Part shown: in pieces, positions 627 through 23,720 of the stretch | Position numbering within the stretch: the first letter of the stretch is position 1 | Layout of the letters: the number at the start of each line of letters is the position of its first letter | Assembly: GCA_035536235.1 (NCBI GenBank) | Contig: DATLOQ010000119.1 | Span: 9-64,008, forward strand | Direction of reading: 5' to 3' | Source of the DNA: Mycobacteriales bacterium | GTDB lineage: Bacteria; Actinomycetota; Actinomycetes; BP-191 | Length of the DNA stretch: 64,000 nucleotides | Made by a program: the position numbers and the translations under genes | The notes under the pieces: generated by a model | The model's input: the letters and a program-made list of their open reading frames with translations, nothing else | Databases searched by the model: none | What the model was told of the DNA's origin: nothing

Positions 627-2354
627 CTAGCGGACGATCACAGCGTCGGGGAGCGGGTCGGCGTACAGGCGGACACCGTCGTGCACCGGGATGGTGAACT
701 CCGTGCCGCCCTCTCCGGTGAAGATGTCGATGATCGCCCCGGCCGCGAAGGTCGGCACCTTGTCCGGGTGGGTCGACTGGATCCGCAGCTCGAGGGTGTG
801 ACCCTTGGCCAGCACGTGCGCGACAGCCTGCGAGACCAGCGGGATCGTCATCTTCTGACCCGGTACGACGGGGCTCGGCTTGTCGTTGCCGTTGCGCAGC
901 TCCGGCTGGATGGCCCAGCCGGACATCGAGATCCGGTCGCGCTCGCCGTCGGGCGCCACGTCGTACAGCGTGGCGTTGATGTGGATCCGCTCGCCGAAGA
1001 CAGCCGTGACGAGCTTCATCGTGGGGATGCCGGCGATCAGCATCTGCTTCGGCAGCGCCTTCGTCGTGAAGACCGCTGAGTCAGGGGAGAACTCACCACC
1101 GGCAGGGTTGGCCCGGAATCGCACGCTGCCGGACTCGTCCGCCAGCTCGCCGAGCGTGCCGGAGTTGGCGTGCAGGGTCAGCGCTCGCGAGGGGGTAGCC
1201 GGCCACGAGGTGGGCGTGAAGACCCGCCCGTCGTTGAGGAAGACCTCGACGGGCGGACCGGTGTCGACCTTGCGCTGCAGCAGCTGCTTGTCGAACCACG
1301 CGTGCAGGGCGAAGGTCCAATGGTGCTCGCGGGTGGTGGGGCAGCAGCCGCTGCCGTGGTCCCACTGGCCGATCCACGCCTTGTCACCCGCGCGGCCGCC
1401 CCGAGCGTGGAACCAGTCGAGGGCGGCTATCCGGGCGGCGTTGTCGTTGACGCCATGCACGGCGAACATCGGGATCTTCGACGCAGCCGCACCCTTTCGG
1501 AAGTCGCGCTCCTTGTGCCAAGCAACCTCGGCGCCGCTGAAGTACGCCTCACCGGTGACGGCGGCCGACTGCGTCATCCCACAGCCGAAGTACTGCATGT
1601 CGCGGCCGAAGTTGTCCCCGCCGGGCAGGTGCCGGTCGATCGCGATCTGCTCGTACGCGACCAACGGGCCGGCCCACTGCAGGCTGTACGGCACGCCGTT
1701 CTGGAACTCGTGGTGGTACATCGCGCCCAACCCGGCGCTGGGGACGATGGTGACCAGGCCCTTGGGGTTCTGCGCGGCGGCCATCTGCGGCGTCGAGCCG
1801 ACGTAGGAGTGTCCGGTCATGCCGACCCGGCCGTTGGACCACGGCTGCTTGGCGGCCCACTCGACGATCGCCTTGGCGTCACGCTGGTCCTTCGGGCCCA
1901 TGTGATCCAGACAGCCCTGGGACTTGCCGGTGCCGCGCAGGTCGACCATCACGACGGCATATCCGCGCGGGGCGAAGTAGCCGGTCAAGCCGATCTTGTT
2001 CTCGTCGGCATCCACCGGCTCGGGCAGGATCCGGGTGCCCTCGCGGCTGCCCGCTCCGCCGTGGTACGGCGAGAGCTCGAGGATCACGCCGAACCGACCC
2101 GCGGCCTTGGGCCGGGTCACCTCGACGTAGAGGCTCGGCCCGTCCGGCATCTTCACCATCATCGACTCCTTGACCGTCGCGAAGCGCGCAGTCGAGAGGC
2201 CGCTGATCTTGGGGTAGTCGCGGGGCGGCCCCGTCGTGACAGTGGGCCGGCCGGTGGCGCCGGACCTCGACGGCGCGGCGTCGGACGCAGCGAGGCTGCC
2301 GGCGAAGACGAGCAGGGCGCAGGCGCCGGACAGGACGAGACGGAATCGGTTCAT
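627..2354 (-). CDS. Secreted S15-type Xaa-Pro dipeptidyl-peptidase / CocE-NonD family alpha/beta hydrolase
   Basis: ORF 627..2483. Nucleophile elbow GHSYVG. Family-like stretches LELSPYHGG, AVVMVDLRGTGKSQG, VHGVNDNAA. Signal peptide MNRFRLVLSGACALLVFAGSLAA from ATG 2354 (alternative ATG 2384). Confidence 0.75.
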   Translation of the reverse strand: MNRFRLVLSGACALLVFAGSLAASDAAPSRSGATGRPTVTTGPPRDYPKISGLSTARFATVKESMMVKMPDGPSLYVEVTRPKAAGRFGVILELSPYHGGAGSREGTRILPEPVDADENKIGLTGYFAPRGYAVVMVDLRGTGKSQGCLDHMGPKDQRDAKAIVEWAAKQPWSNGRVGMTGHSYVGSTPQMAAAQNPKGLVTIVPSAGLGAMYHHEFQNGVPYSLQWAGPLVAYEQIAIDRHLPGGDNFGRDMQYFGCGMTQSAAVTGEAYFSGAEVAWHKERDFRKGAAASKIPMFAVHGVNDNAARIAALDWFHARGGRAGDKAWIGQWDHGSGCCPTTREHHWTFALHAWFDKQLLQRKVDTGPPVEVFLNDGRVFTPTSWPATPSRALTLHANSGTLGELADESGSVRFRANPAGGEFSPDSAVFTTKALPKQMLIAGIPTMKLVTAVFGERIHINATLYDVAPDGERDRISMSGWAIQPELRNGNDKPSPVVPGQKMTIPLVSQAVAHVLAKGHTLELRIQSTHPDKVPTFAAGAIIDIFTGEGGTEFTIPVHDGVRLYADPLPDAVIVR

Positions 2355-2409
2355 GAGCGGTGTTTTCGGTGTACGTCGGCCCATTCCTGCCGCGGTTACG
2401 CTGGCGAGC

Positions 2410-3453
2410 ATGACCGAGATGGTGGTGGCCGCGGAGGACACCGGACTGCTCCGCCGATGGCGGGAGGTGCTGCGGACCACCAACCCGCCGGCGCTCGGCC
2501 CGGACCAGCAGATCGACGTCGTGTCGAAGTGGCTGGTGCTGACCCGCGCAGCGGTGCTGCCGATGACGCTGACCGCGGGACTGGTGGCCGGCCTTCTCGC
2601 CGTACGCCAGGAGGGATTCCACTCCGGCTACTTCGCGCTGGCGCTGCTGGGCATCACCTTGGCGCACGTGTCGAACAACTTGATGAACGACCTCTTCGAC
2701 AGCGAGGTAGGCCTCGACACGAACAGCTATCCCCGGGCCCTCTACGCCCCGCACCCCATCCTGTCCGGGATGATCTCCCGGCGTGGGTTGGCCCTCGCGG
2801 CACTTGCGGTCAACGTCGCCGACCTGGCGATCGGGCTTGTGCTCTTCAGCGCCCGCGGCTGGCCGGTGCTCGCCTTCGCCGTCTCCGGCTTCCTGCTGAG
2901 CGCCGCTTACACGGCACCGCCGCTGCGGCTGAAGAAGCGGGGCCTCGGCGAGCCTGACGTGTTTCTCGTGTGGGGGCCGTTGATGGTCGGCGGGACCTAC
3001 TACTCAGCGGTCGGCTCCGTGCCGGAGGCGATCCTCGCCGCGTCCATTCCCTACGGCCTGCTCTGCACGGCCGTGCTGATGGGAAAGCACATCGACAAGA
3101 TCCCGTGGGACTCCCCCGCCGGGGTCCGGACCCTACCCGTGATCCTCGGTGAGGACCGCGCGCGAGTGCTCACTCGGGCGCTGATGATCGGCTTCTACGT
3201 CGCCGTCGTCGGCTGCGTGATCGGCGGTGCGCTGCCGTGGCCGGCCCTCGCAGTGATCGGCGCACTACCGGTGCTGGTCAAGACCCTGCAACCGCTGCGC
3301 GAGCCGCGACCCGACGCGCCACCGGCCGGCTTCCCGGTGTGGCCGCTGTGGTTCGCCGCCATCGCCTTCGTGCACACCCGCCGAGCCGGCGCGCTGCTCG
3401 TCCTCGGCCTCGCGGGCGCCGCGATCGCCGACATCCCCGCCCCGGCGCTCTGA
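2410..3453 (+). CDS. UbiA-family membrane prenyltransferase, substrate unknown
   Basis: ORF 2236..3453, trimmed to ATG 2410 (MTEMVVAAED). Asp-rich motif NNLMNDLFDSEVGLD, many hydrophobic helices, and a second conserved block YTAPPLRLKKRGLGE. Confidence 0.75.
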   Translation: MTEMVVAAEDTGLLRRWREVLRTTNPPALGPDQQIDVVSKWLVLTRAAVLPMTLTAGLVAGLLAVRQEGFHSGYFALALLGITLAHVSNNLMNDLFDSEVGLDTNSYPRALYAPHPILSGMISRRGLALAALAVNVADLAIGLVLFSARGWPVLAFAVSGFLLSAAYTAPPLRLKKRGLGEPDVFLVWGPLMVGGTYYSAVGSVPEAILAASIPYGLLCTAVLMGKHIDKIPWDSPAGVRTLPVILGEDRARVLTRALMIGFYVAVVGCVIGGALPWPALAVIGALPVLVKTLQPLREPRPDAPPAGFPVWPLWFAAIAFVHTRRAGALLVLGLAGAAIADIPAPAL

Positions 3454-3500: not shown

Positions 3501-4886
3501 TCACCCGGGTCGCGCCCGAAGGTGGGCGAGGACGGTGGCCGCGGCCTTCTCCCCGGATCGGATGCAGGCGGGCACCCCCACGCCGTCGTACGCCGAGCCG
3601 GCCAGGGCCAGTCCGGGCAAAGCGGCGAGCGCGGCGTCGACCCGGGCGATTCGCTCCCGGTGCCCGACGGCGTACTGCGGCAGCGCGTCGGCCCAGCGCG
3701 AGACGCGGACCTCGAGCGGGCGCGCGGTGAGCCCGACCGCGAGCGCCAGCTCGGTGAGCAGTCGCGCCACGATCTCGTCGTCGTCGTCGGGGGCCGGCTC
3801 GCCTGCTCGCCCGACGGAGCACCGCACGATTGTCACGTCGCCCCGGTCGAGGTGCGCCCACTTCGCCGACGAGAAGGTGCACGCCTTCATCAGGCGACCT
3901 TCGGTCGCCGGCACCAGGAAGCCGCTGCCTCCCGGCGCTCCCGCCAGCGCCCCACGAGGCAGCGCCATGGTCACGACCACGACCGACGCAGTCCTGACGC
4001 CGGCGAGCTCGGTCGACACCTCGGGGGCAGCGAATCGCAGCAGGCTGCTCGCGACAGGAGCCGGCGTCGCCGCGACCACGGCATCCACCACGAGAGCGCG
4101 ACCCCCGACCAGGGTGATCCGCCACGCGTTGCCGACCCGCTCGACCAGGGCCGCCCGGGACGACAAGCGCACGGCGTCGCCGAGGGAGCGCGCGATGGCC
4201 TGGGGCAGCTGCCCGAGGCCGCCGTCGAGAGACGAGAAGACCGGCGACGTGTCGACGGGTGCGGCCGCGGTGCGGCTGCGCACCACGCGCATCACGGAAC
4301 GCTGGCCGTGCGCTGCCGCAGCCAGCTGCGGCACTGTCGACTCGAGGCTTAGCTCGTCCGCCCGACCGGCGTAGACCCCGCCGAGCAAGGGGTCAACGAG
4401 GCGGTCGACGACCTGCCGACCGAGGCGGCGCCGGACGAGCTCCCCGACACTGATGTCGCCGACGGGTGCCGACGCGGGCAGCACCAGGTCGGCCGCCGCG
4501 CGGAGCAGTCCGGCCGGCGAGAGCACCCTGCTGGATGCCAGAGATCGCCATGACCCGGGCACGCCGAGGAGAGTGCCCTCAGGAATGGGGCGTAGCCGGT
4601 CCCCGATCCACACGTAGGCCTGCCCGGTGCTTGGCGAGACCAGCAGCTCGCCGAGCCCGACCTCACGGGCCAGCCGCTCCCCCTCGGGCACCCGGGCCAG
4701 GAAGGCGTCCGCTCCCGCGTCGACCTGGAGCCCACCGATCGACGACGTGTGCAGGATGCCGCCGACCCGCGCCGACCCCTCTAGCACGATCACCTCGATG
4801 GCGGGATCAGCGGTGCGATGGAGCGCATGAGCGCAGGCCAGTCCGGAGATTCCGCCGCCGATGACGGCGACCACCCTGCGCCCCAT
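3501..4886 (-). CDS. hemY: Coproporphyrinogen III oxidase / protoporphyrinogen oxidase (CgoX, HemY type, FAD-dependent)
   Basis: 461 aa. N-terminal dinucleotide fold VVAVIGGGISGLACAH. C-terminal LAGSAYDGVGVPACIRSG, typical of HemY. ATG at 4886. Confidence 0.85.
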   Translation of the reverse strand: MGRRVVAVIGGGISGLACAHALHRTADPAIEVIVLEGSARVGGILHTSSIGGLQVDAGADAFLARVPEGERLAREVGLGELLVSPSTGQAYVWIGDRLRPIPEGTLLGVPGSWRSLASSRVLSPAGLLRAAADLVLPASAPVGDISVGELVRRRLGRQVVDRLVDPLLGGVYAGRADELSLESTVPQLAAAAHGQRSVMRVVRSRTAAAPVDTSPVFSSLDGGLGQLPQAIARSLGDAVRLSSRAALVERVGNAWRITLVGGRALVVDAVVAATPAPVASSLLRFAAPEVSTELAGVRTASVVVVTMALPRGALAGAPGGSGFLVPATEGRLMKACTFSSAKWAHLDRGDVTIVRCSVGRAGEPAPDDDDEIVARLLTELALAVGLTARPLEVRVSRWADALPQYAVGHRERIARVDAALAALPGLALAGSAYDGVGVPACIRSGEKAAATVLAHLRARPG

Positions 4887-19210: not shown

Positions 19211-20440
19211 TCAGCCGACCTGCCAGCTCGCCGTCTCGACGAGCAGCTCCGCGCGGGGATGGGTCGGCAGGACCCACGGCGTCGTGTCGGCGACCTGCAC
19301 CTCGACGGTGAACGCGCCCCGTGGTCCCGCCTCCGTGCGGAGATCGAGCTCGGTCACGTCCCGGGCGACAACGCGACCGTCGATCGACCACGTGATGCGC
19401 AGCGTGCCGACTCGTGGCGTGGTGATACGCAAGGTCGCGCCGCGCCGCGCGGCGGCAGCCGGGGAAGCAGTCAGCAAGGGTCGGGCGAGCTCGTAGAAGC
19501 CGAGGACCATCTCCTCCCGACCGACGACGTTGAACTCGCGGCCGAGCGACCGCATGATCGAATTGGCACTGGGCCGGTAGTAGACAACCGGGTTGTAGCG
19601 GCCGCCGAGGTGGCTGCCGATCGTCCCTCCGTCCGGCGTGGACTGGCCGAACCAGCGCCACCACTTCAGCTGCTGCGGCACCATGACCTGCTCCGGGTAG
19701 ACCGTGGCGTTGGCCTCCGGTGCATCGCCGACGTGTGGAATGAGGTAAGGGCTGTCGTACTCGTCGGCGAGCTTGCCGATGGAATGTCCTAGCTCGTGGA
19801 TGGCGACCTGCCCGGCCTTGGCGTGGCCGCCGGATGCGGTAGCGACCTTGCCGCCGGCCCCGCCGTACTTGGCGCTGTTGCCGAGGGCCAGGACGTGGTC
19901 GACGTCAGGCACGAGCTCTTCCGCGGCGGCCAGTGCCTTGCTCTGGTTGACACAGAGCAGACGCTCAGTGCCATTGCACCAGAACTGCATGTCCAGCACG
20001 GTGTCGCGCGAGGTGCCGGGCAACGGGTCGTTGTCGACCCCGGACTCGGCCGAGACCACCTCGACCAGCCAGACGTTGAACACACCGCGGTAGCTGCGGA
20101 ACGGCTCGATCGAGAACAGCTCGTCCACTTTCGACGATGCATGCCTGTGGAACACGGGCTGCTCCGCCGCGGTGTAGCCGTCACCGACGACCACCAGGTC
20201 GAACGTCGTCTCGGCCGGCCCGGAGACCTGCAGCGGGACGACGCCGGTCGCCGCGGCCGCGGCCCGGCTTCGCTCTGCGGCGGACGTCTCGAGAGCCACC
20301 GGCACCCGCACACGCTCGATGCGGCCATCGGGACTGAAGACCTCGCGGACCTCATACGCCGGGGCCGCTGGCGGCTGCTCGGCGGCCGCCAGAGAGGACA
20401 CGGCGATGAGCGGCAGCGCGAAGACAGCGGCCAGCCTCAT
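19211..20440 (-). CDS. Secreted M64-family (IgA-peptidase-like) zinc metallopeptidase
   Basis: 409 aa, with a signal peptide. LVVVGDGYTAAEQ, LGNSAKYGGAGG and the zinc motif HELGHSIGKLADEY. Confidence 0.75.
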   Translation of the reverse strand: MRLAAVFALPLIAVSSLAAAEQPPAAPAYEVREVFSPDGRIERVRVPVALETSAAERSRAAAAATGVVPLQVSGPAETTFDLVVVGDGYTAAEQPVFHRHASSKVDELFSIEPFRSYRGVFNVWLVEVVSAESGVDNDPLPGTSRDTVLDMQFWCNGTERLLCVNQSKALAAAEELVPDVDHVLALGNSAKYGGAGGKVATASGGHAKAGQVAIHELGHSIGKLADEYDSPYLIPHVGDAPEANATVYPEQVMVPQQLKWWRWFGQSTPDGGTIGSHLGGRYNPVVYYRPSANSIMRSLGREFNVVGREEMVLGFYELARPLLTASPAAAARRGATLRITTPRVGTLRITWSIDGRVVARDVTELDLRTEAGPRGAFTVEVQVADTTPWVLPTHPRAELLVETASWQVG

Positions 20441-20481: not shown

Positions 20482-20505
20482 CTGCTGTCGGGTTGCCGAC
20501 AGCAG
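20482..20505 (-). terminator. Hairpin immediately after the HEPN stop codon
   Basis: CTGCTGTCGG (20482..20491), loop GTTG, CCGACAGCAG (20496..20505). 10-bp perfect stem ending 2 nt from the stop at 20508. It separates the HEPN gene from the M64 gene. Confidence 0.55.
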
Positions 20506-20507
20506 GC

Positions 20508-20954
20508 TCAGGCGCCTGGGCGCAGGAGCGGCAGGGCCTCCTGATGGGTGACCCGCAGGACCGACTCGGCGACGTGCAGGAACGTCTCGGCGTCGCGCAG
20601 CAGGTCGTCGGCCTCTCGAGCGCTCACCTGCCCGACCAGCCCGGCCTCCGCGGCGGCTCTCTTGCGGGCTCCGGCCGCGAAGAAGCTGGCCCATTCGGCC
20701 AGCTCAGGAGCCACCCGGCTGAGCAGCACCCACACGCTGATGGGGCGACGTCGGGAGCCCGCGCGCTGGTCAGGCTGCGCCTTGGCCGCCACCACCGCAG
20801 CCGCCGCGCGCAGCGCGGCGAGGTGGGCGGCGGCGTAGCGCTGCGCGGCGTTGGGTGCCATCGCAGCCTCGGCGACCCCGCGCCGGGACAGCCCGAGCAG
20901 GCCGGCACTGTCTGGGCCGGTCCCGGCGCGAGCAGTGATCGACGCGACGGTCAC
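20508..20954 (-). CDS. SAV_6107-family HEPN-domain protein (148 aa), monocistronic
   Basis: ORF 20508..20975, trimmed to GTG 20954, which lies 4 nt after GGAGGTG. Ala-rich helical protein with AQRYAAAHLAALRAAAAVVAAKA and a HEPN-type Rx4-6H motif (RDAETFLH). Family recognised from memory. Confidence 0.7.
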   Translation of the reverse strand: MTVASITARAGTGPDSAGLLGLSRRGVAEAAMAPNAAQRYAAAHLAALRAAAAVVAAKAQPDQRAGSRRRPISVWVLLSRVAPELAEWASFFAAGARKRAAAEAGLVGQVSAREADDLLRDAETFLHVAESVLRVTHQEALPLLRPGA

Positions 20955-21148
20955 GAAGCACCTCCAGGAACGCACCAGCGGAGCAGCGGGCTCGAGCGGC
21001 CGCCGGCCCGGGTGACGCGCTTCCCCACGCGCCCCCGAGCCGGCAGGTCCCGGCCGGCGGCCGCCCAGGGTCGAGACTGGGCAGCCGACCGGCCAAGAAA
21101 CCTCCGCTCACCGGCGGACGCGCCCCGCGAGAGCCCGCCGTCGGTTGA

Positions 21149-21164
21149 TCGAACAGACGTTCGA
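21149..21164. promoter_or_regulatory. LexA SOS box, perfect match to the mycobacterial/actinobacterial consensus TCGAAC-N4-GTTCGA
   Basis: TCGAACAGACGTTCGA, read directly. It lies in the divergent region between the HEPN gene and the crtA-like gene. No second full copy was seen elsewhere in the window by eye. Confidence 0.7.
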
Positions 21165-21173
21165 CCATGCTGG

Positions 21174-21204
21174 AGAGTAAAGCCTGGGTGGGACAAACCG
21201 TCAA
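21174..21204 (-). promoter_or_regulatory. Candidate sigma-A-type promoter reading toward the HEPN gene
   Basis: Minus strand: TTGACG (21204..21199), 19-nt spacer, TACTCT (21179..21174). The SOS box begins 9 nt downstream of the -10 hexamer, over the predicted start site. The spacer is longer than optimal. Confidence 0.4.
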
Positions 21205-21215
21205 CCCCGCTCCCC

Positions 21216-21221
21216 TACGCT
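21216..21221 (+). promoter_or_regulatory. -10-like hexamer TACGCT, 6 nt before the crtA-like ATG (leaderless-transcript candidate)
   Basis: TANNNT pattern followed by GGGTCG and then ATG 21228. No Shine-Dalgarno sequence. Confidence 0.35.
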
Positions 21222-21227
21222 GGGTCG

Positions 21228-21959
21228 ATGCCAGATTTCGCCGGGCAGCCGGCTGTCGAGAGCGCCCCGCTGGTGGTGCTCCAGGTCTGGACCGTGGCAC
21301 TGTCCTCGGTGCCCCATGCCATCGCGCGGATGGCCCTGGACCGCCGACCCTTGCGTAGGACTCCCGGGCTGAGCTTCAGCAAGCTGCTGGGCACCGGCGA
21401 CGGGCAGAGCTTCACCGTGCGCGACGCCGACGTCCGCCGGTGGGGGCTGCTGTCTGTCTGGGCCTCCGACGCGGCGTACGACGACTTCCGCAGGTTCTCG
21501 GCCGTCCCCCGACGATGGACGCGGATCGCCGTCGAGGAGTGGGCGGTGAGCCTGCGGCCCCTGTCCAGTCGCGGCGAGTGGTCCGGCCGGGCACCGTTCG
21601 GCGAGCCGATCCCACGGCGCTACGACGGTCCGGTCGCCGCGATCACCCGCGCCCGGATCCGACCCACGAAGGCAATGACCTTCTGGAAGTCTGTGCCGGC
21701 GGTATCCGCCGACCTGCGCACAGGCGCGGGACTGCGCTGGGCCCTCGGCATCGGCGAGGCCCCCATCGGTCTGCAGGGCACGTTCTCCCTCTGGGACGAC
21801 GCCGCGGCGCTGCGGGACTTCGCCTACGGGCGCGCTGCGCACACCACAGCGATCACCCGCACGGCGGAAGTCGGCTGGTACGCAGAGGAGCTCTTCGCCC
21901 GGTTCGCTGTCGAGGCGAGCTGCGGCACGGTGGACGGGCGAGATCCGGCGCGCGTCTGA
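21228..21959 (+). CDS. Spheroidene-monooxygenase-like (CrtA-family) carotenoid oxygenase
   Basis: C-terminal 243 aa of ORF 20319..21959, from ATG 21228 (MPDFAGQPAVES...). RRPLRRTPGLSFSKLLGTG and GTFSLWDDAAALRDFAY resemble Rhodobacter CrtA as I recall it. Confidence 0.65.
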   Translation: MPDFAGQPAVESAPLVVLQVWTVALSSVPHAIARMALDRRPLRRTPGLSFSKLLGTGDGQSFTVRDADVRRWGLLSVWASDAAYDDFRRFSAVPRRWTRIAVEEWAVSLRPLSSRGEWSGRAPFGEPIPRRYDGPVAAITRARIRPTKAMTFWKSVPAVSADLRTGAGLRWALGIGEAPIGLQGTFSLWDDAAALRDFAYGRAAHTTAITRTAEVGWYAEELFARFAVEASCGTVDGRDPARV

Positions 21960-22113
21960 GGGAATCGCTCGGTCTCGACAGGAGCGACTACGGGCCCGGG
22001 CAGCGCAGCGCCGCTGCCACCGCCGCCTGGCCGAGGCTGATCCCTCCGTCGTTGGGTGGGTGGATGCCCCTGCCGTCTCAGAAGCGGAGAGTAACGAACC
22101 CTGACGGAGTCCA

Positions 22114-22119
22114 TAGACT
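22114..22119 (+). promoter_or_regulatory. -10-like hexamer TAGACT, 8 nt before ATG 22128
   Basis: TANNNT pattern. No Shine-Dalgarno sequence between it and the start codon. Confidence 0.3.
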
Positions 22120-22127
22120 CGTCCGAC

Positions 22128-23720
22128 ATGCGCGACGTCGTGGTGGTCGGAGCGGGGCACAACGCCCTGGTGGCGGCGTGCTACCTCGCGCGTGAGGGGC
22201 TCGACGTCGAGGTAGTCGAGCGCAGCGATGTCGTCGGCGGGGCGGTCTCCACCGTCGAGCGCTTCCCGGGTTACCTGATGGATCGCGGCTCGAGCGCGCA
22301 CATCATGATCCGGCACACCGGCATTCTCGAAGAGCTGCGACTCGCCGAGGCGGGGTTGACGTACCAGGACCTCGACCCGTGGGGCTTCGCGCCGTACGGC
22401 GAGGAGAGCATCTACTTCTCCGTCGACCTCGACCGCACGTGCGCGTCCATCGAGAAGGTGTGCGGGAGTCAGGACGCCGACGCCTACCGCGCCTTCGTCG
22501 ACGACTGGGCCGACCGCAACGAGCGAGTGTTCAGCGCCTTCCAGGCACCGCCGACAGGCGCCAACCTCGGCCGGCACCTGTGGGGCATCGGCAAGAGCAC
22601 CGGGCTCTCCGGCATGGAGCTGTCCCGGCAGTTCCTGACCACCGCGGACCAGCTGCTCGACACCCACTTCGACGACGAGCGCCTCAAGACCGCCCTCGCC
22701 TGGATGGGCGCGCAGTCCGGCCCGCCGACCCATGAAGTGGCGACCGCTGACCTCGTCGGCTGGAACACCCTCATGCATCGTCGCCCCCCGGGGCATCCGG
22801 TCGGCGGCAGCGGCCAGCTCTCCGTCGCCCTGGCCCGCCGCCTGGCGACGTACGGCGGGGTGCTGCGACTGGGCGACGGCGCGGCGCAGATCCGCACGCA
22901 GGACGGGCGGGCGACCGGCGTACGCACCATGAGCGGAGACACGATCGAGGCCGGCATCGTGGTAGCCGGATGCCACGTGCTGACCACCGTTGGCCTGGTG
23001 GGAGACGACGCCTCGGCCGGTCCGCGATGGCAGGAGCTGGCGCAGCGCGCGCGCCGTACGGTGCGCACCGGCAACGGCATCGGCATGGTCGTGCGGCTCG
23101 GGACAACCGACCTGCCCCGATACACCGCGGCGGATCCGGCACAGGACGGCGCGGAGCACCGGGCCATGCAGCTCATCGCACCGGACCGGGTGGCGTTGCG
23201 ACGAGCCCACGGCGAGTTCAGTGCGGGCCTCCCGCCGACCCGCCCGGCGGCGTTGGCGATGACCTTCTCCGCATTCGACGACACCATCGCGCCGCCCGGA
23301 AAACATAACGTGACCGTCTGGGGGCAGTGGCATCCCTACGAGCTCTCCAACGGTGAGAGCTGGGACGGCATCCGCGAGCGGGAGGGGCAGAAGCTCGTCG
23401 ACGCCGTCGACGCCGTCGCGCCTGGCTTCGCCAGCTCGGTGGAGCACATGCACGTCCAGACCCCGCTCGACCTGGAGCGCGAGCTCGGGCTGGTGCGTGG
23501 GCAGGTGATGCACGTCGAGATGGCGCTGGACCAGATGTTCGGGTGGCGCCCGCTCCCGGAGCTCGCCGGCTACCGCACCCCGCTCGGCGGGCTCTACCTC
23601 ACCGGTGCGTCCACTCACCCCGGCGGCGGGGTCTTCGGCGCCAGCGGTCGCTCCGCGGCCCGCATCGTCCTCGCCGACCGCTCCCCCAGCCTCCTCACCC
23701 GCTTGCGCCCCCGCCGCTGA
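22128..23720 (+). CDS. CrtI-superfamily FAD oxidoreductase, CrtO-like size (possible carotenoid ketolase)
   Basis: 530 aa. VVVVGAGHNALVAACYLAREG...GGAVST dinucleotide fold. C-terminal LYLTGASTHPGGGVFG. The specific function is inferred from length and context only. Confidence 0.7.
   Translation: MRDVVVVGAGHNALVAACYLAREGLDVEVVERSDVVGGAVSTVERFPGYLMDRGSSAHIMIRHTGILEELRLAEAGLTYQDLDPWGFAPYGEESIYFSVDLDRTCASIEKVCGSQDADAYRAFVDDWADRNERVFSAFQAPPTGANLGRHLWGIGKSTGLSGMELSRQFLTTADQLLDTHFDDERLKTALAWMGAQSGPPTHEVATADLVGWNTLMHRRPPGHPVGGSGQLSVALARRLATYGGVLRLGDGAAQIRTQDGRATGVRTMSGDTIEAGIVVAGCHVLTTVGLVGDDASAGPRWQELAQRARRTVRTGNGIGMVVRLGTTDLPRYTAADPAQDGAEHRAMQLIAPDRVALRRAHGEFSAGLPPTRPAALAMTFSAFDDTIAPPGKHNVTVWGQWHPYELSNGESWDGIREREGQKLVDAVDAVAPGFASSVEHMHVQTPLDLERELGLVRGQVMHVEMALDQMFGWRPLPELAGYRTPLGGLYLTGASTHPGGGVFGASGRSAARIVLADRSPSLLTRLRPRR

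Follow-up and report, generated by a model that had tools for sequence, protein, structure and literature searches.

A SAV_6107-family HEPN gene behind a LexA-type operator and a structured leader RNA: a probable reduced form of an actinobacterial DUF6504-HEPN-DnaE2-like operon

What does a gene for a HEPN-fold protein do behind a perfect SOS box, the operator of the LexA repressor? The question is raised by a stretch of 64,000 nucleotides (nt) from a Mycobacteriales bacterium (GenBank assembly GCA_035536235.1, contig DATLOQ010000119.1), hereafter the window, in which a minus-strand gene with a GTG start (20508..20954, stop included) encodes a protein of 148 amino acids (aa) that belongs to the SAV_6107 family (Pfam PF18726 HEPN_SAV_6107, E = 1.8e-34) and has an identical counterpart at NCBI, from a Mycobacteriales metagenome-assembled genome (MAG). 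An earlier inspection of the letters (the sequence-only reading) had taken this gene for a self-contained, LexA-gated unit encoding an RNase toxin or defence effector. Based on comparative analyses of the locus and its relatives, we consider it probable that the window carries a DNA-damage-inducible unit, the reduced form of an SOS operon made up of promoter, LexA box, structured leader, DUF6504, HEPN (SAV_6107) and a DnaE2-like polymerase, in which the HEPN protein would be an accessory and not a toxin. The leader-DUF6504-HEPN-DnaE2-like cassette, under SOS and often PafBC control, is apparently widespread and undescribed.

The operator, TCGAACAGACGTTCGA (TCGAAC-AGAC-GTTCGA, 21149..21164), is a palindrome lying over the predicted transcription start. 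It matches the mycobacterial LexA consensus TCGAAC-N4-GTTCGA at 12 of 12 specified positions and is the sole perfect match in 64 kb; no perfect match appeared in 100 dinucleotide-preserving shuffles of the window (0 expected by chance), which bears out the earlier claim of an occurrence far below chance. A scan allowing up to two mismatches returned 4 matches against 1.97 expected in 64 kb, about the chance level, and therefore only the perfect site is meaningful. Along the minus strand, a -35-like hexamer TTGACG (21204-21199) is followed after 19 nt by a -10 hexamer TACTCT of the TAnnnT type (21179-21174), after 9 nt by the box, and then by a 194-nt leader, the Shine-Dalgarno (SD) sequence GGAGGTG (20959..20965) and GTG 20954. 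Direct reading thus agrees with the promoter-like pair that had been described, as it does with the other listed sequence features, each found in its place. A strict sigma-70 scan called no promoter at the TTGACG-19nt-TACTCT pair, owing to the 19-nt spacer and the weak -10; despite this silence, the layout of TTGACG, -10 and box is conserved among relatives, and the start site is accordingly given as a prediction. The palindrome, taken over 21147-21166 of the minus strand, would also give the mRNA a hairpin of 8 bp at its extreme 5' end if transcription started 1-3 nt before the box, a possible stabilising stem-loop besides the operator role.

Conservation of the box was assessed in 80 genome loci with HEPN relatives (cited below by numbers such as L070) and four contigs of close relatives. 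In this homology-led sample, the non-Streptomyces loci, except L061, carry a perfect or one-mismatch SOS box upstream of the HEPN gene; TTGAC or TTGCG is kept at the -35 position in most of them, followed by a TAnnnT -10 and, in nearly all, by the box 8-9 nt later. In about 50 related loci, which come from several orders of actinobacteria, the half-sites do not vary but the 4-nt spacer does. The five closest relatives (72-85% protein identity) keep the half-sites, with one mismatch in L082, and the spacers of the five closest sequences all differ (AGAC in the window, ACGT, ATCT, ACTC and GCAC). Invariant arms around a free spacer are the pattern of a protein operator, not of an RNA stem, and this footprint makes LexA repression of the HEPN gene very likely. 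The proposed LexA gating is therefore supported: in relatives both close and distant the box stands at a constant distance from the -10, and the comparison of homologs that had been suggested found it at the same place in the metagenome loci described below and in every non-Streptomyces locus but one. The Streptomyces venezuelae LexA motif, tCGAAC-N4-GNNCGa, is experimentally established, and dnaE2 of that species is LexA-bound and induced 30-fold; the supplements to the S. venezuelae LexA data do not name the SAV_6107 family (the orthologue's locus tag was not mapped). In the searchable literature we found no paper connecting the SAV_6107 HEPN family with SOS control or dnaE2, the family being named only in the 2013 HEPN survey (Anantharaman et al., 2013).

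The genes that accompany this promoter in relatives bear on what the HEPN protein may do. In L070, a complete Acidothermaceae genome, box and leader are followed by DUF6504, HEPN and a 1254-aa homologue of the alpha subunit of DNA polymerase III (PolIII-alpha); the end of DUF6504, at 3992, is overlapped or abutted by the HEPN gene, and 24 nt past the HEPN stop the polymerase gene begins. Pfam confirms DUF6504 and the PolIII-alpha architecture, with PHP, pol3-alpha, finger, HhH and OB domains, and in tblastn searches the DUF6504-HEPN-polymerase order recurs. A motif-led metagenome scan, which used a DNA pattern only (box-N55-85-CTCGACCC) and was meant to avoid circularity, returned 80 matches. 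Chance accounts for 57 of these, which lie in coding DNA and are separable by the absence of a loop-centred hairpin and of a promoter; the matches with such a hairpin and enough downstream DNA encode DUF6504 and/or HEPN in 23 of 23 cases, and the chance matches have neither feature. When 52 loci were classified, 33 were DUF6504-first, 16 shared the HEPN-first form of the window and the remaining 3 were truncated, and the order DUF6504-HEPN-DnaE2-like was found in 21. Three loci (L120 at ~2170-2250, L150 and L152) carry, between leader and HEPN, an open reading frame (ORF) of 24 codons, MAVTYDAGRPVRDAAG..., that is like the DUF6504 N-terminus (M.RRYDEPVEV); with this stump, the HEPN-first loci are read as reduced operons that arose by loss. 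The window protein is 57-68% identical to the operon-encoded copies. Hence the description of a stand-alone gene applies to the window and 15 other loci, which are HEPN-only, and does not extend to the family, whose usual partners are DUF6504 and the DnaE2-like polymerase.

Several observations weigh against reading the window as a reduced mutagenesis operon with a non-toxic HEPN protein. Its 64 kb contain no DUF6504 or DnaE-like sequence, and the DnaE2 link at this locus would thus be one of orthology only. The polymerase of the relatives scores about equally on the replicative and error-prone NCBIfam models and below both cut-offs, and is therefore named DnaE2-like. Given R120...H127 and R39-x4-H44, discussed below, some nuclease activity of the window protein also stays conceivable. 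The small partner DUF6504 is all-beta and has no neighbour in the PDB; its C-terminal Trp is conserved, as are Arg residues. It is possibly a standalone ImuB-C, matched by description; no sequence or PDB link between DUF6504 and ImuB-C was found, a further point on the same side. Standalone ImuB-C next to DnaE2 was described by Aravind et al. (2013; PMC3765255), and actinobacterial DnaE2B groups 'linked only to ImuB-C', without ImuA/ImuB, have been reported (PMC12926913, Nucleic Acids Res 2026). None of these papers, with their available supplements, mentions a HEPN gene, and no paper in the searchable literature contains DUF6504.

Besides LexA, a second damage response may act on many of these promoters. 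The RecA-NDp/PafBC motif is tTGTCRgtg-8nt-TannnT (PMC5656591), and mycobacterial genes are known that combine RecA-NDp with an SOS box. In about 31 of the 52 related loci, TGTCR-N11-TAnnnT stands immediately upstream of the SOS box, which implies dual control by an activator and a repressor; examples of the full TGTCRGTG-N8-TAnnnT type are found in L001 (3334), L022 (3446), L070 (3435) and L081 (5747). At some related loci the element takes the form TGTCGGTG. Relatives of the window keep it at the same N8-TAnnnT spacing, as TGTCGCAC in L083, TGTCACAC in L105 and TGTCGGAC in L081. The window itself, with TTGTCCCAC-N8-TACTCT, departs from the PafBC motif, the R position being occupied by C and gtg replaced by CAC; by motif comparison, TGTCCCAC (21188..21195, minus strand) is a degenerate remnant of the '-26' element tTGTCRgtg, and the C at the core R position makes PafBC control of this locus doubtful. 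All Streptomyces homologues share an invariant ATTGTCAGTG-N8-CACGAT promoter, and the SAV_6107 HEPN family as a whole looks like a member of the DNA-damage regulon across Actinomycetota. The SAV_6107 genes of the Streptomyces loci L009-L080 (~3760-3960) also share a short covarying leader hairpin, ACGGC...GCCGU, and have upstream a LexA-like CCGAAC-N4-GATCGA, weaker and about 35 nt upstream of the promoter, together with an inverted repeat, TTTTGAACTGACTGGTCAGTGCAAAA, that is conserved and might serve the divergent Streptomyces gene as an operator.

Between box and start codon, the transcript would carry a structured 5' leader RNA with no ORF (20955..21148, minus strand), as indicated by folding, by G+C content at third codon positions (GC3) and by a consensus fold with four close relatives. 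No reading frame has a consistent GC3 signal, and close relatives differ by indels whose lengths are not divisible by three. A segment of 219 nt that begins just upstream of the box and extends to the start codon (21168-20950) folds with a minimum free energy of -145.5 kcal/mol (z = -5.4). The RNAalifold consensus of the window with L083, L105, L082 and L081, the five closest sequences, contains a 5' hairpin made by the box, a hairpin P1 with conserved GCUCUCGCGG (21110..21145), and a helix P2 (20994..21109) in which GAGCGG 21104-21109 pairs with CCGCUC 20994-20999 and closes a domain of two long hairpins, hp1 and hp2. In P2 one pair changes from GC to AU in 2 of 5 sequences and the others are invariant, which supports the helix weakly.

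The first of these hairpins, hp1 (21048..21098), presents the loop UCUCGACC at 21069-21076 (family motif YUCGACCC) and is characterized by conservation and covariation: over 22 loci the loop is 98% identical and the arms 41% identical. Register shifts kept RNAalifold from finding a structure in plain MAFFT alignments of hp1, and the hairpin was therefore analysed in a gapless subset, with a covariance model, and by an energy test in which arms were swapped. The hairpin's own arms reach -36.9 kcal/mol, against -22.9 +/- 5.4 for arms exchanged between loci; pairing is seen in 81.5% of the cells of the covariance-model alignment, and 15 of the 16 pairs have changes on both sides; and covariation is 0.587, compared with 0.197 in shuffles, of which 0 of 500 reached the observed value, and with no more than 0.221 when the register is slid. 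The second hairpin, hp2 (21000..21046, loop GGGGAA at 21021-21026), is supported by compensatory pairs and by arm-swap energy (-42.3 kcal/mol for its own arms vs -32.1 for exchanged arms); it occurs in 13 genome loci and in metagenome loci, about half of all loci, with a conserved apex GYG-GGGGAA-GCGC and covarying outer stems. Many hp2-bearing loci carry downstream CUUCCCCC, complementary to the GGGGAAG loop, where a pseudoknot or an SD-sequestering switch is possible; CUUCCCCC is not present in the window leader. Conserved leader structure was also seen in L001-L004, L017, L070, L081-L083, L105 and others, and Rfam covariance models gave nothing above noise in the window leader or in 15 related loci. 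As the conserved bases lie in terminal loops and not in a junction, the architecture suggests that a protein or a different RNA recognizes the leader, and it does not resemble a metabolite pocket or small-molecule riboswitch. The sequence-only reading had supposed that the long leader might matter and that it holds no convincing ORF; both suppositions gain from these data, the proposed test by folding and covariation having yielded a stable fold and covariation beyond shuffles. Two candidate leader frames, from TTG 21196 (81 aa, with a TGA overlapping GTG 20954) and from ATG 21168, were rejected, as neither has a GC3 signal or a family match and both start codons are unconserved. An intrinsic attenuator at 21103-21118 with GGTTTCTTGG, the sole terminator-like call in the leader, was discarded as well, relatives having no conserved T run there.

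Whether the HEPN protein is an RNase has to be judged from the family. An SOS-induced HEPN toxin or defence effector, with LexA replacing the antitoxin and RNA being cleaved after DNA damage or prophage induction, would suit several features of the window protein: it has the four-helix up-down HEPN fold; its RDAETFLH motif, correctly noted before, occupies residues 120-127 in the canonical last helix (R120-x6-H127); R120 is kept in 57 of 65 representatives; and SOS-induced toxins exist elsewhere, such as SymE, according to the survey of Anantharaman et al. (2013). The only signal from a defence database is a weak match over the full length (27 bits, E = 1e-6) to the PADLOC model PDC-M05B, which stands for the HEPN member of a candidate MNT+HEPN defence pair; it indicates distant relatedness only. 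The catalytic residue speaks otherwise, as the position of His127 is most commonly Ala among the same 65 representatives (Ala 22, Ser 8, Gly 8) and is Gln in the 85% identical protein of L083, so that this histidine is lineage-specific and a conserved Rx4-6H at the start of the last helix is lacking at family level; the 2013 survey accordingly lists the SAV_6107 family with Rx4-6H 'No'. Strong constraint falls elsewhere in the protein, on a near-invariant R39-x4-H44 in helix 2 and on R49, W75, W88 and R99. Moreover, the recurrent partners are those of the operon described above, and no MNT or antitoxin gene exists in the window, as had been noticed, or in about 130 related loci. DUF6504 has no entry in PADLOC. 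The window gene is flanked by peptidase M64 and CrtA-like genes, and in four relatives the HEPN gene is syntenic, adjoining fadB/thiolase/RNase D genes, which is not a defence-island setting. By these comparisons the RNase-toxin reading appears unsupported, and we regard it as unlikely for this gene. In the C-terminal tail, 168 of 237 homologues (P0001-P0268) have (H)Q-x-x-L-(P) at residues 139-146 (~20517-20540), and 55 of the 237 fit Qxx[LFM]x[LFMIV], the window sequence being HQEALPL; a resemblance to beta-clamp-binding peptides such as QLSLPL is speculative.

The box itself could serve another gene or none. It lies 64 nt from ATG 21228 within a shared 273-nt intergenic region, so that the alternative already raised in the sequence-only reading, in which it mainly controls the divergent carotenoid-tailoring genes and couples pigment modification to ultraviolet light or DNA damage, has some support, and the closest relative, L083, has the same divergent gene. 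Nevertheless, the distance between the box and the minus-strand -10 is fixed at 8-9 nt, and HEPN keeps its box and leader when the upstream neighbour changes, as in all DUF6504-first loci, in L081 (a co-directional gene for a cytidine diphosphate-alcohol phosphatidyltransferase) and in L082 (an unrelated divergent gene); in addition, the only plus-strand TAnnnT near the start, TACGCT at 21217-21222, would place the box at about -50 to -65, atypical for a repressor. Control of the carotenoid genes is thus disfavoured and seems distinctly improbable as the main role, a side effect on the divergent promoter being conceivable. It could also be argued, from the lack of DUF6504 and dnaE2 in the window and from the degeneracy of its PafBC-type element, that a DUF6504-HEPN-dnaE2 operon has been lost and has left box and leader behind as inert relics, with HEPN expressed constitutively or not at all. 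Against decay stand the half-sites kept among differing spacers in the five relatives and the hairpins kept through compensatory changes, both of which indicate purifying selection, as well as an intact HEPN ORF with strong GC3 periodicity, and we hold the relic explanation to be very improbable. The reduced, damage-inducible SOS operon with a non-toxic HEPN accessory is therefore the reading we retain.

Regarding the surroundings, a GC-rich 10-bp hairpin, CTGCTGTCGG/CCGACAGCAG (20482..20505, minus strand), begins 2 nt after the HEPN stop and has the perfect stem that had been reported; it is followed by ACCCGACAAGG, which lacks the T run expected of an intrinsic terminator. A secreted peptidase M64 gene (19211-20440, minus strand) begins at ATG 20440, 67 nt after the HEPN stop and 42 nt past the hairpin. 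Consequently, of the claim of a self-contained unit the hairpin stands, and the isolation is uncertain, there being no U tract and a same-strand gene downstream into which read-through from the SOS promoter could occur. In L083, L081 and L082 fadB comes directly next and the M64 gene is missing from this place; it looks like a recent insertion. On the other side, the divergent genes (21228-23720, plus strand) encode a CrtA-like spheroidene-monooxygenase homologue (from 21228; 184 bits vs a cut-off of 300) and a CrtO-like ketolase (from 22128; 259 bits vs a cut-off of 1000), which suggests carotenoid tailoring in this Mycobacteriales MAG, with uncertain substrates as both fall well below the equivalog cut-offs. 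In L081, Rfam matches a c-di-GMP-II-GAG riboswitch at 2320-2430 (minus strand; 42.2 bits for a gathering score of 40), which precedes a 265-aa gene with no assigned function that adjoins a polyprenyl synthase gene; the window has no counterpart of it.

Taken together, phylogenetic footprinting points to a mechanism in which LexA would bind the palindrome at about +1 to +19 and block RNA polymerase, until DNA damage led to RecA-stimulated cleavage of LexA and released transcription. In many relatives a PafBC/RecA-NDp activator would act just upstream of the box, an input that the degenerate element makes doubtful for the window. The leader of about 195 nt would fold into the 5' box hairpin, P1 and the helix-closed pair of long hairpins, whose loops, YUCGACCC and GGGGAAG, may allow post-transcriptional control of a potentially mutagenic operon through recognition by a protein or RNA. 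The HEPN-fold helical protein would derive from the MNT-associated HEPN clade, with the catalytic His lost by the family, and from its gene context it is most likely a non-nucleolytic accessory or adaptor in DnaE2-linked damage tolerance. As a conjecture that we put forward with little confidence, SAV_6107 HEPN might be the third subunit of an actinobacterial mutasome devoid of ImuA/ImuB, together with DUF6504 (ImuB-C-like) and DnaE2; its tail, (H)QxxL(P)(L), might tether it to the beta clamp or to a partner, and its HEPN body might bind the YUCGACCC loop of its own leader, giving feedback on the SOS/PafBC operon, with lineages such as that of the window keeping HEPN and leader alone as a damage-induced regulator.

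DnaE2-dependent mutagenesis drives the evolution of drug resistance in Actinobacteria, and the present findings bear on its subunit make-up beyond ImuA'-ImuB-DnaE2. They add a HEPN-fold protein whose gene regularly stands between those of a small beta protein and the polymerase, in a unit headed by a LexA operator combined with a PafBC-type promoter, with a conserved structured leader RNA outside Rfam as part of the cassette. The default annotation 'HEPN = RNase toxin' would thereby be corrected for a family of several thousand proteins, and the operon is present in the cultured genera Modestobacter, Embleya and Pilimelia and in Acidothermaceae strain B102.

Among known systems, the MNT-HEPN toxin-antitoxin and PDC-M05 pairs (e.g., the AF0298-type UPF0332 HEPN, 2hsb) include a nucleotidyltransferase partner that the window lacks; the SAV_6107 family also differs from them by the family-wide loss of the catalytic His and by a gene that is chromosomal, syntenic and SOS-regulated. 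PafBC/RecA-NDp promoters, which serve the LexA-independent damage response of mycobacteria, are resembled by those of about 31 of the 52 related loci and of all Streptomyces homologues, the window departing from them at the core R position of TGTCCCAC. There is a likeness in regulation to the LexA-regulated dnaE2 and imuA-imuB-dnaE2 cassettes of mycobacteria and to Streptomyces dnaE2-dinP, which share the actinobacterial SOS box over the promoter and, with 21 of the related loci, a terminal DnaE2-like PolIII-alpha homologue. The related operon has no ImuA, ImuB or Y-family polymerase and carries DUF6504 and HEPN instead, and the window retains the HEPN gene only. The DnaE2B-[ImuB-C] module (PMC12926913) is similar in its restriction to Actinobacteria, in a small all-beta protein by DnaE2 and in genomes without imuA/imuB, DUF6504 being likened to ImuB-C by shared description only (all-beta, C-terminal Trp, Arg residues, no PDB neighbour); its published form has no HEPN component and no described leader RNA. 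The locus would thus belong to a known kind, an SOS mutagenesis operon and member of the LexA regulon, and its new components are the HEPN protein and the leader RNA.

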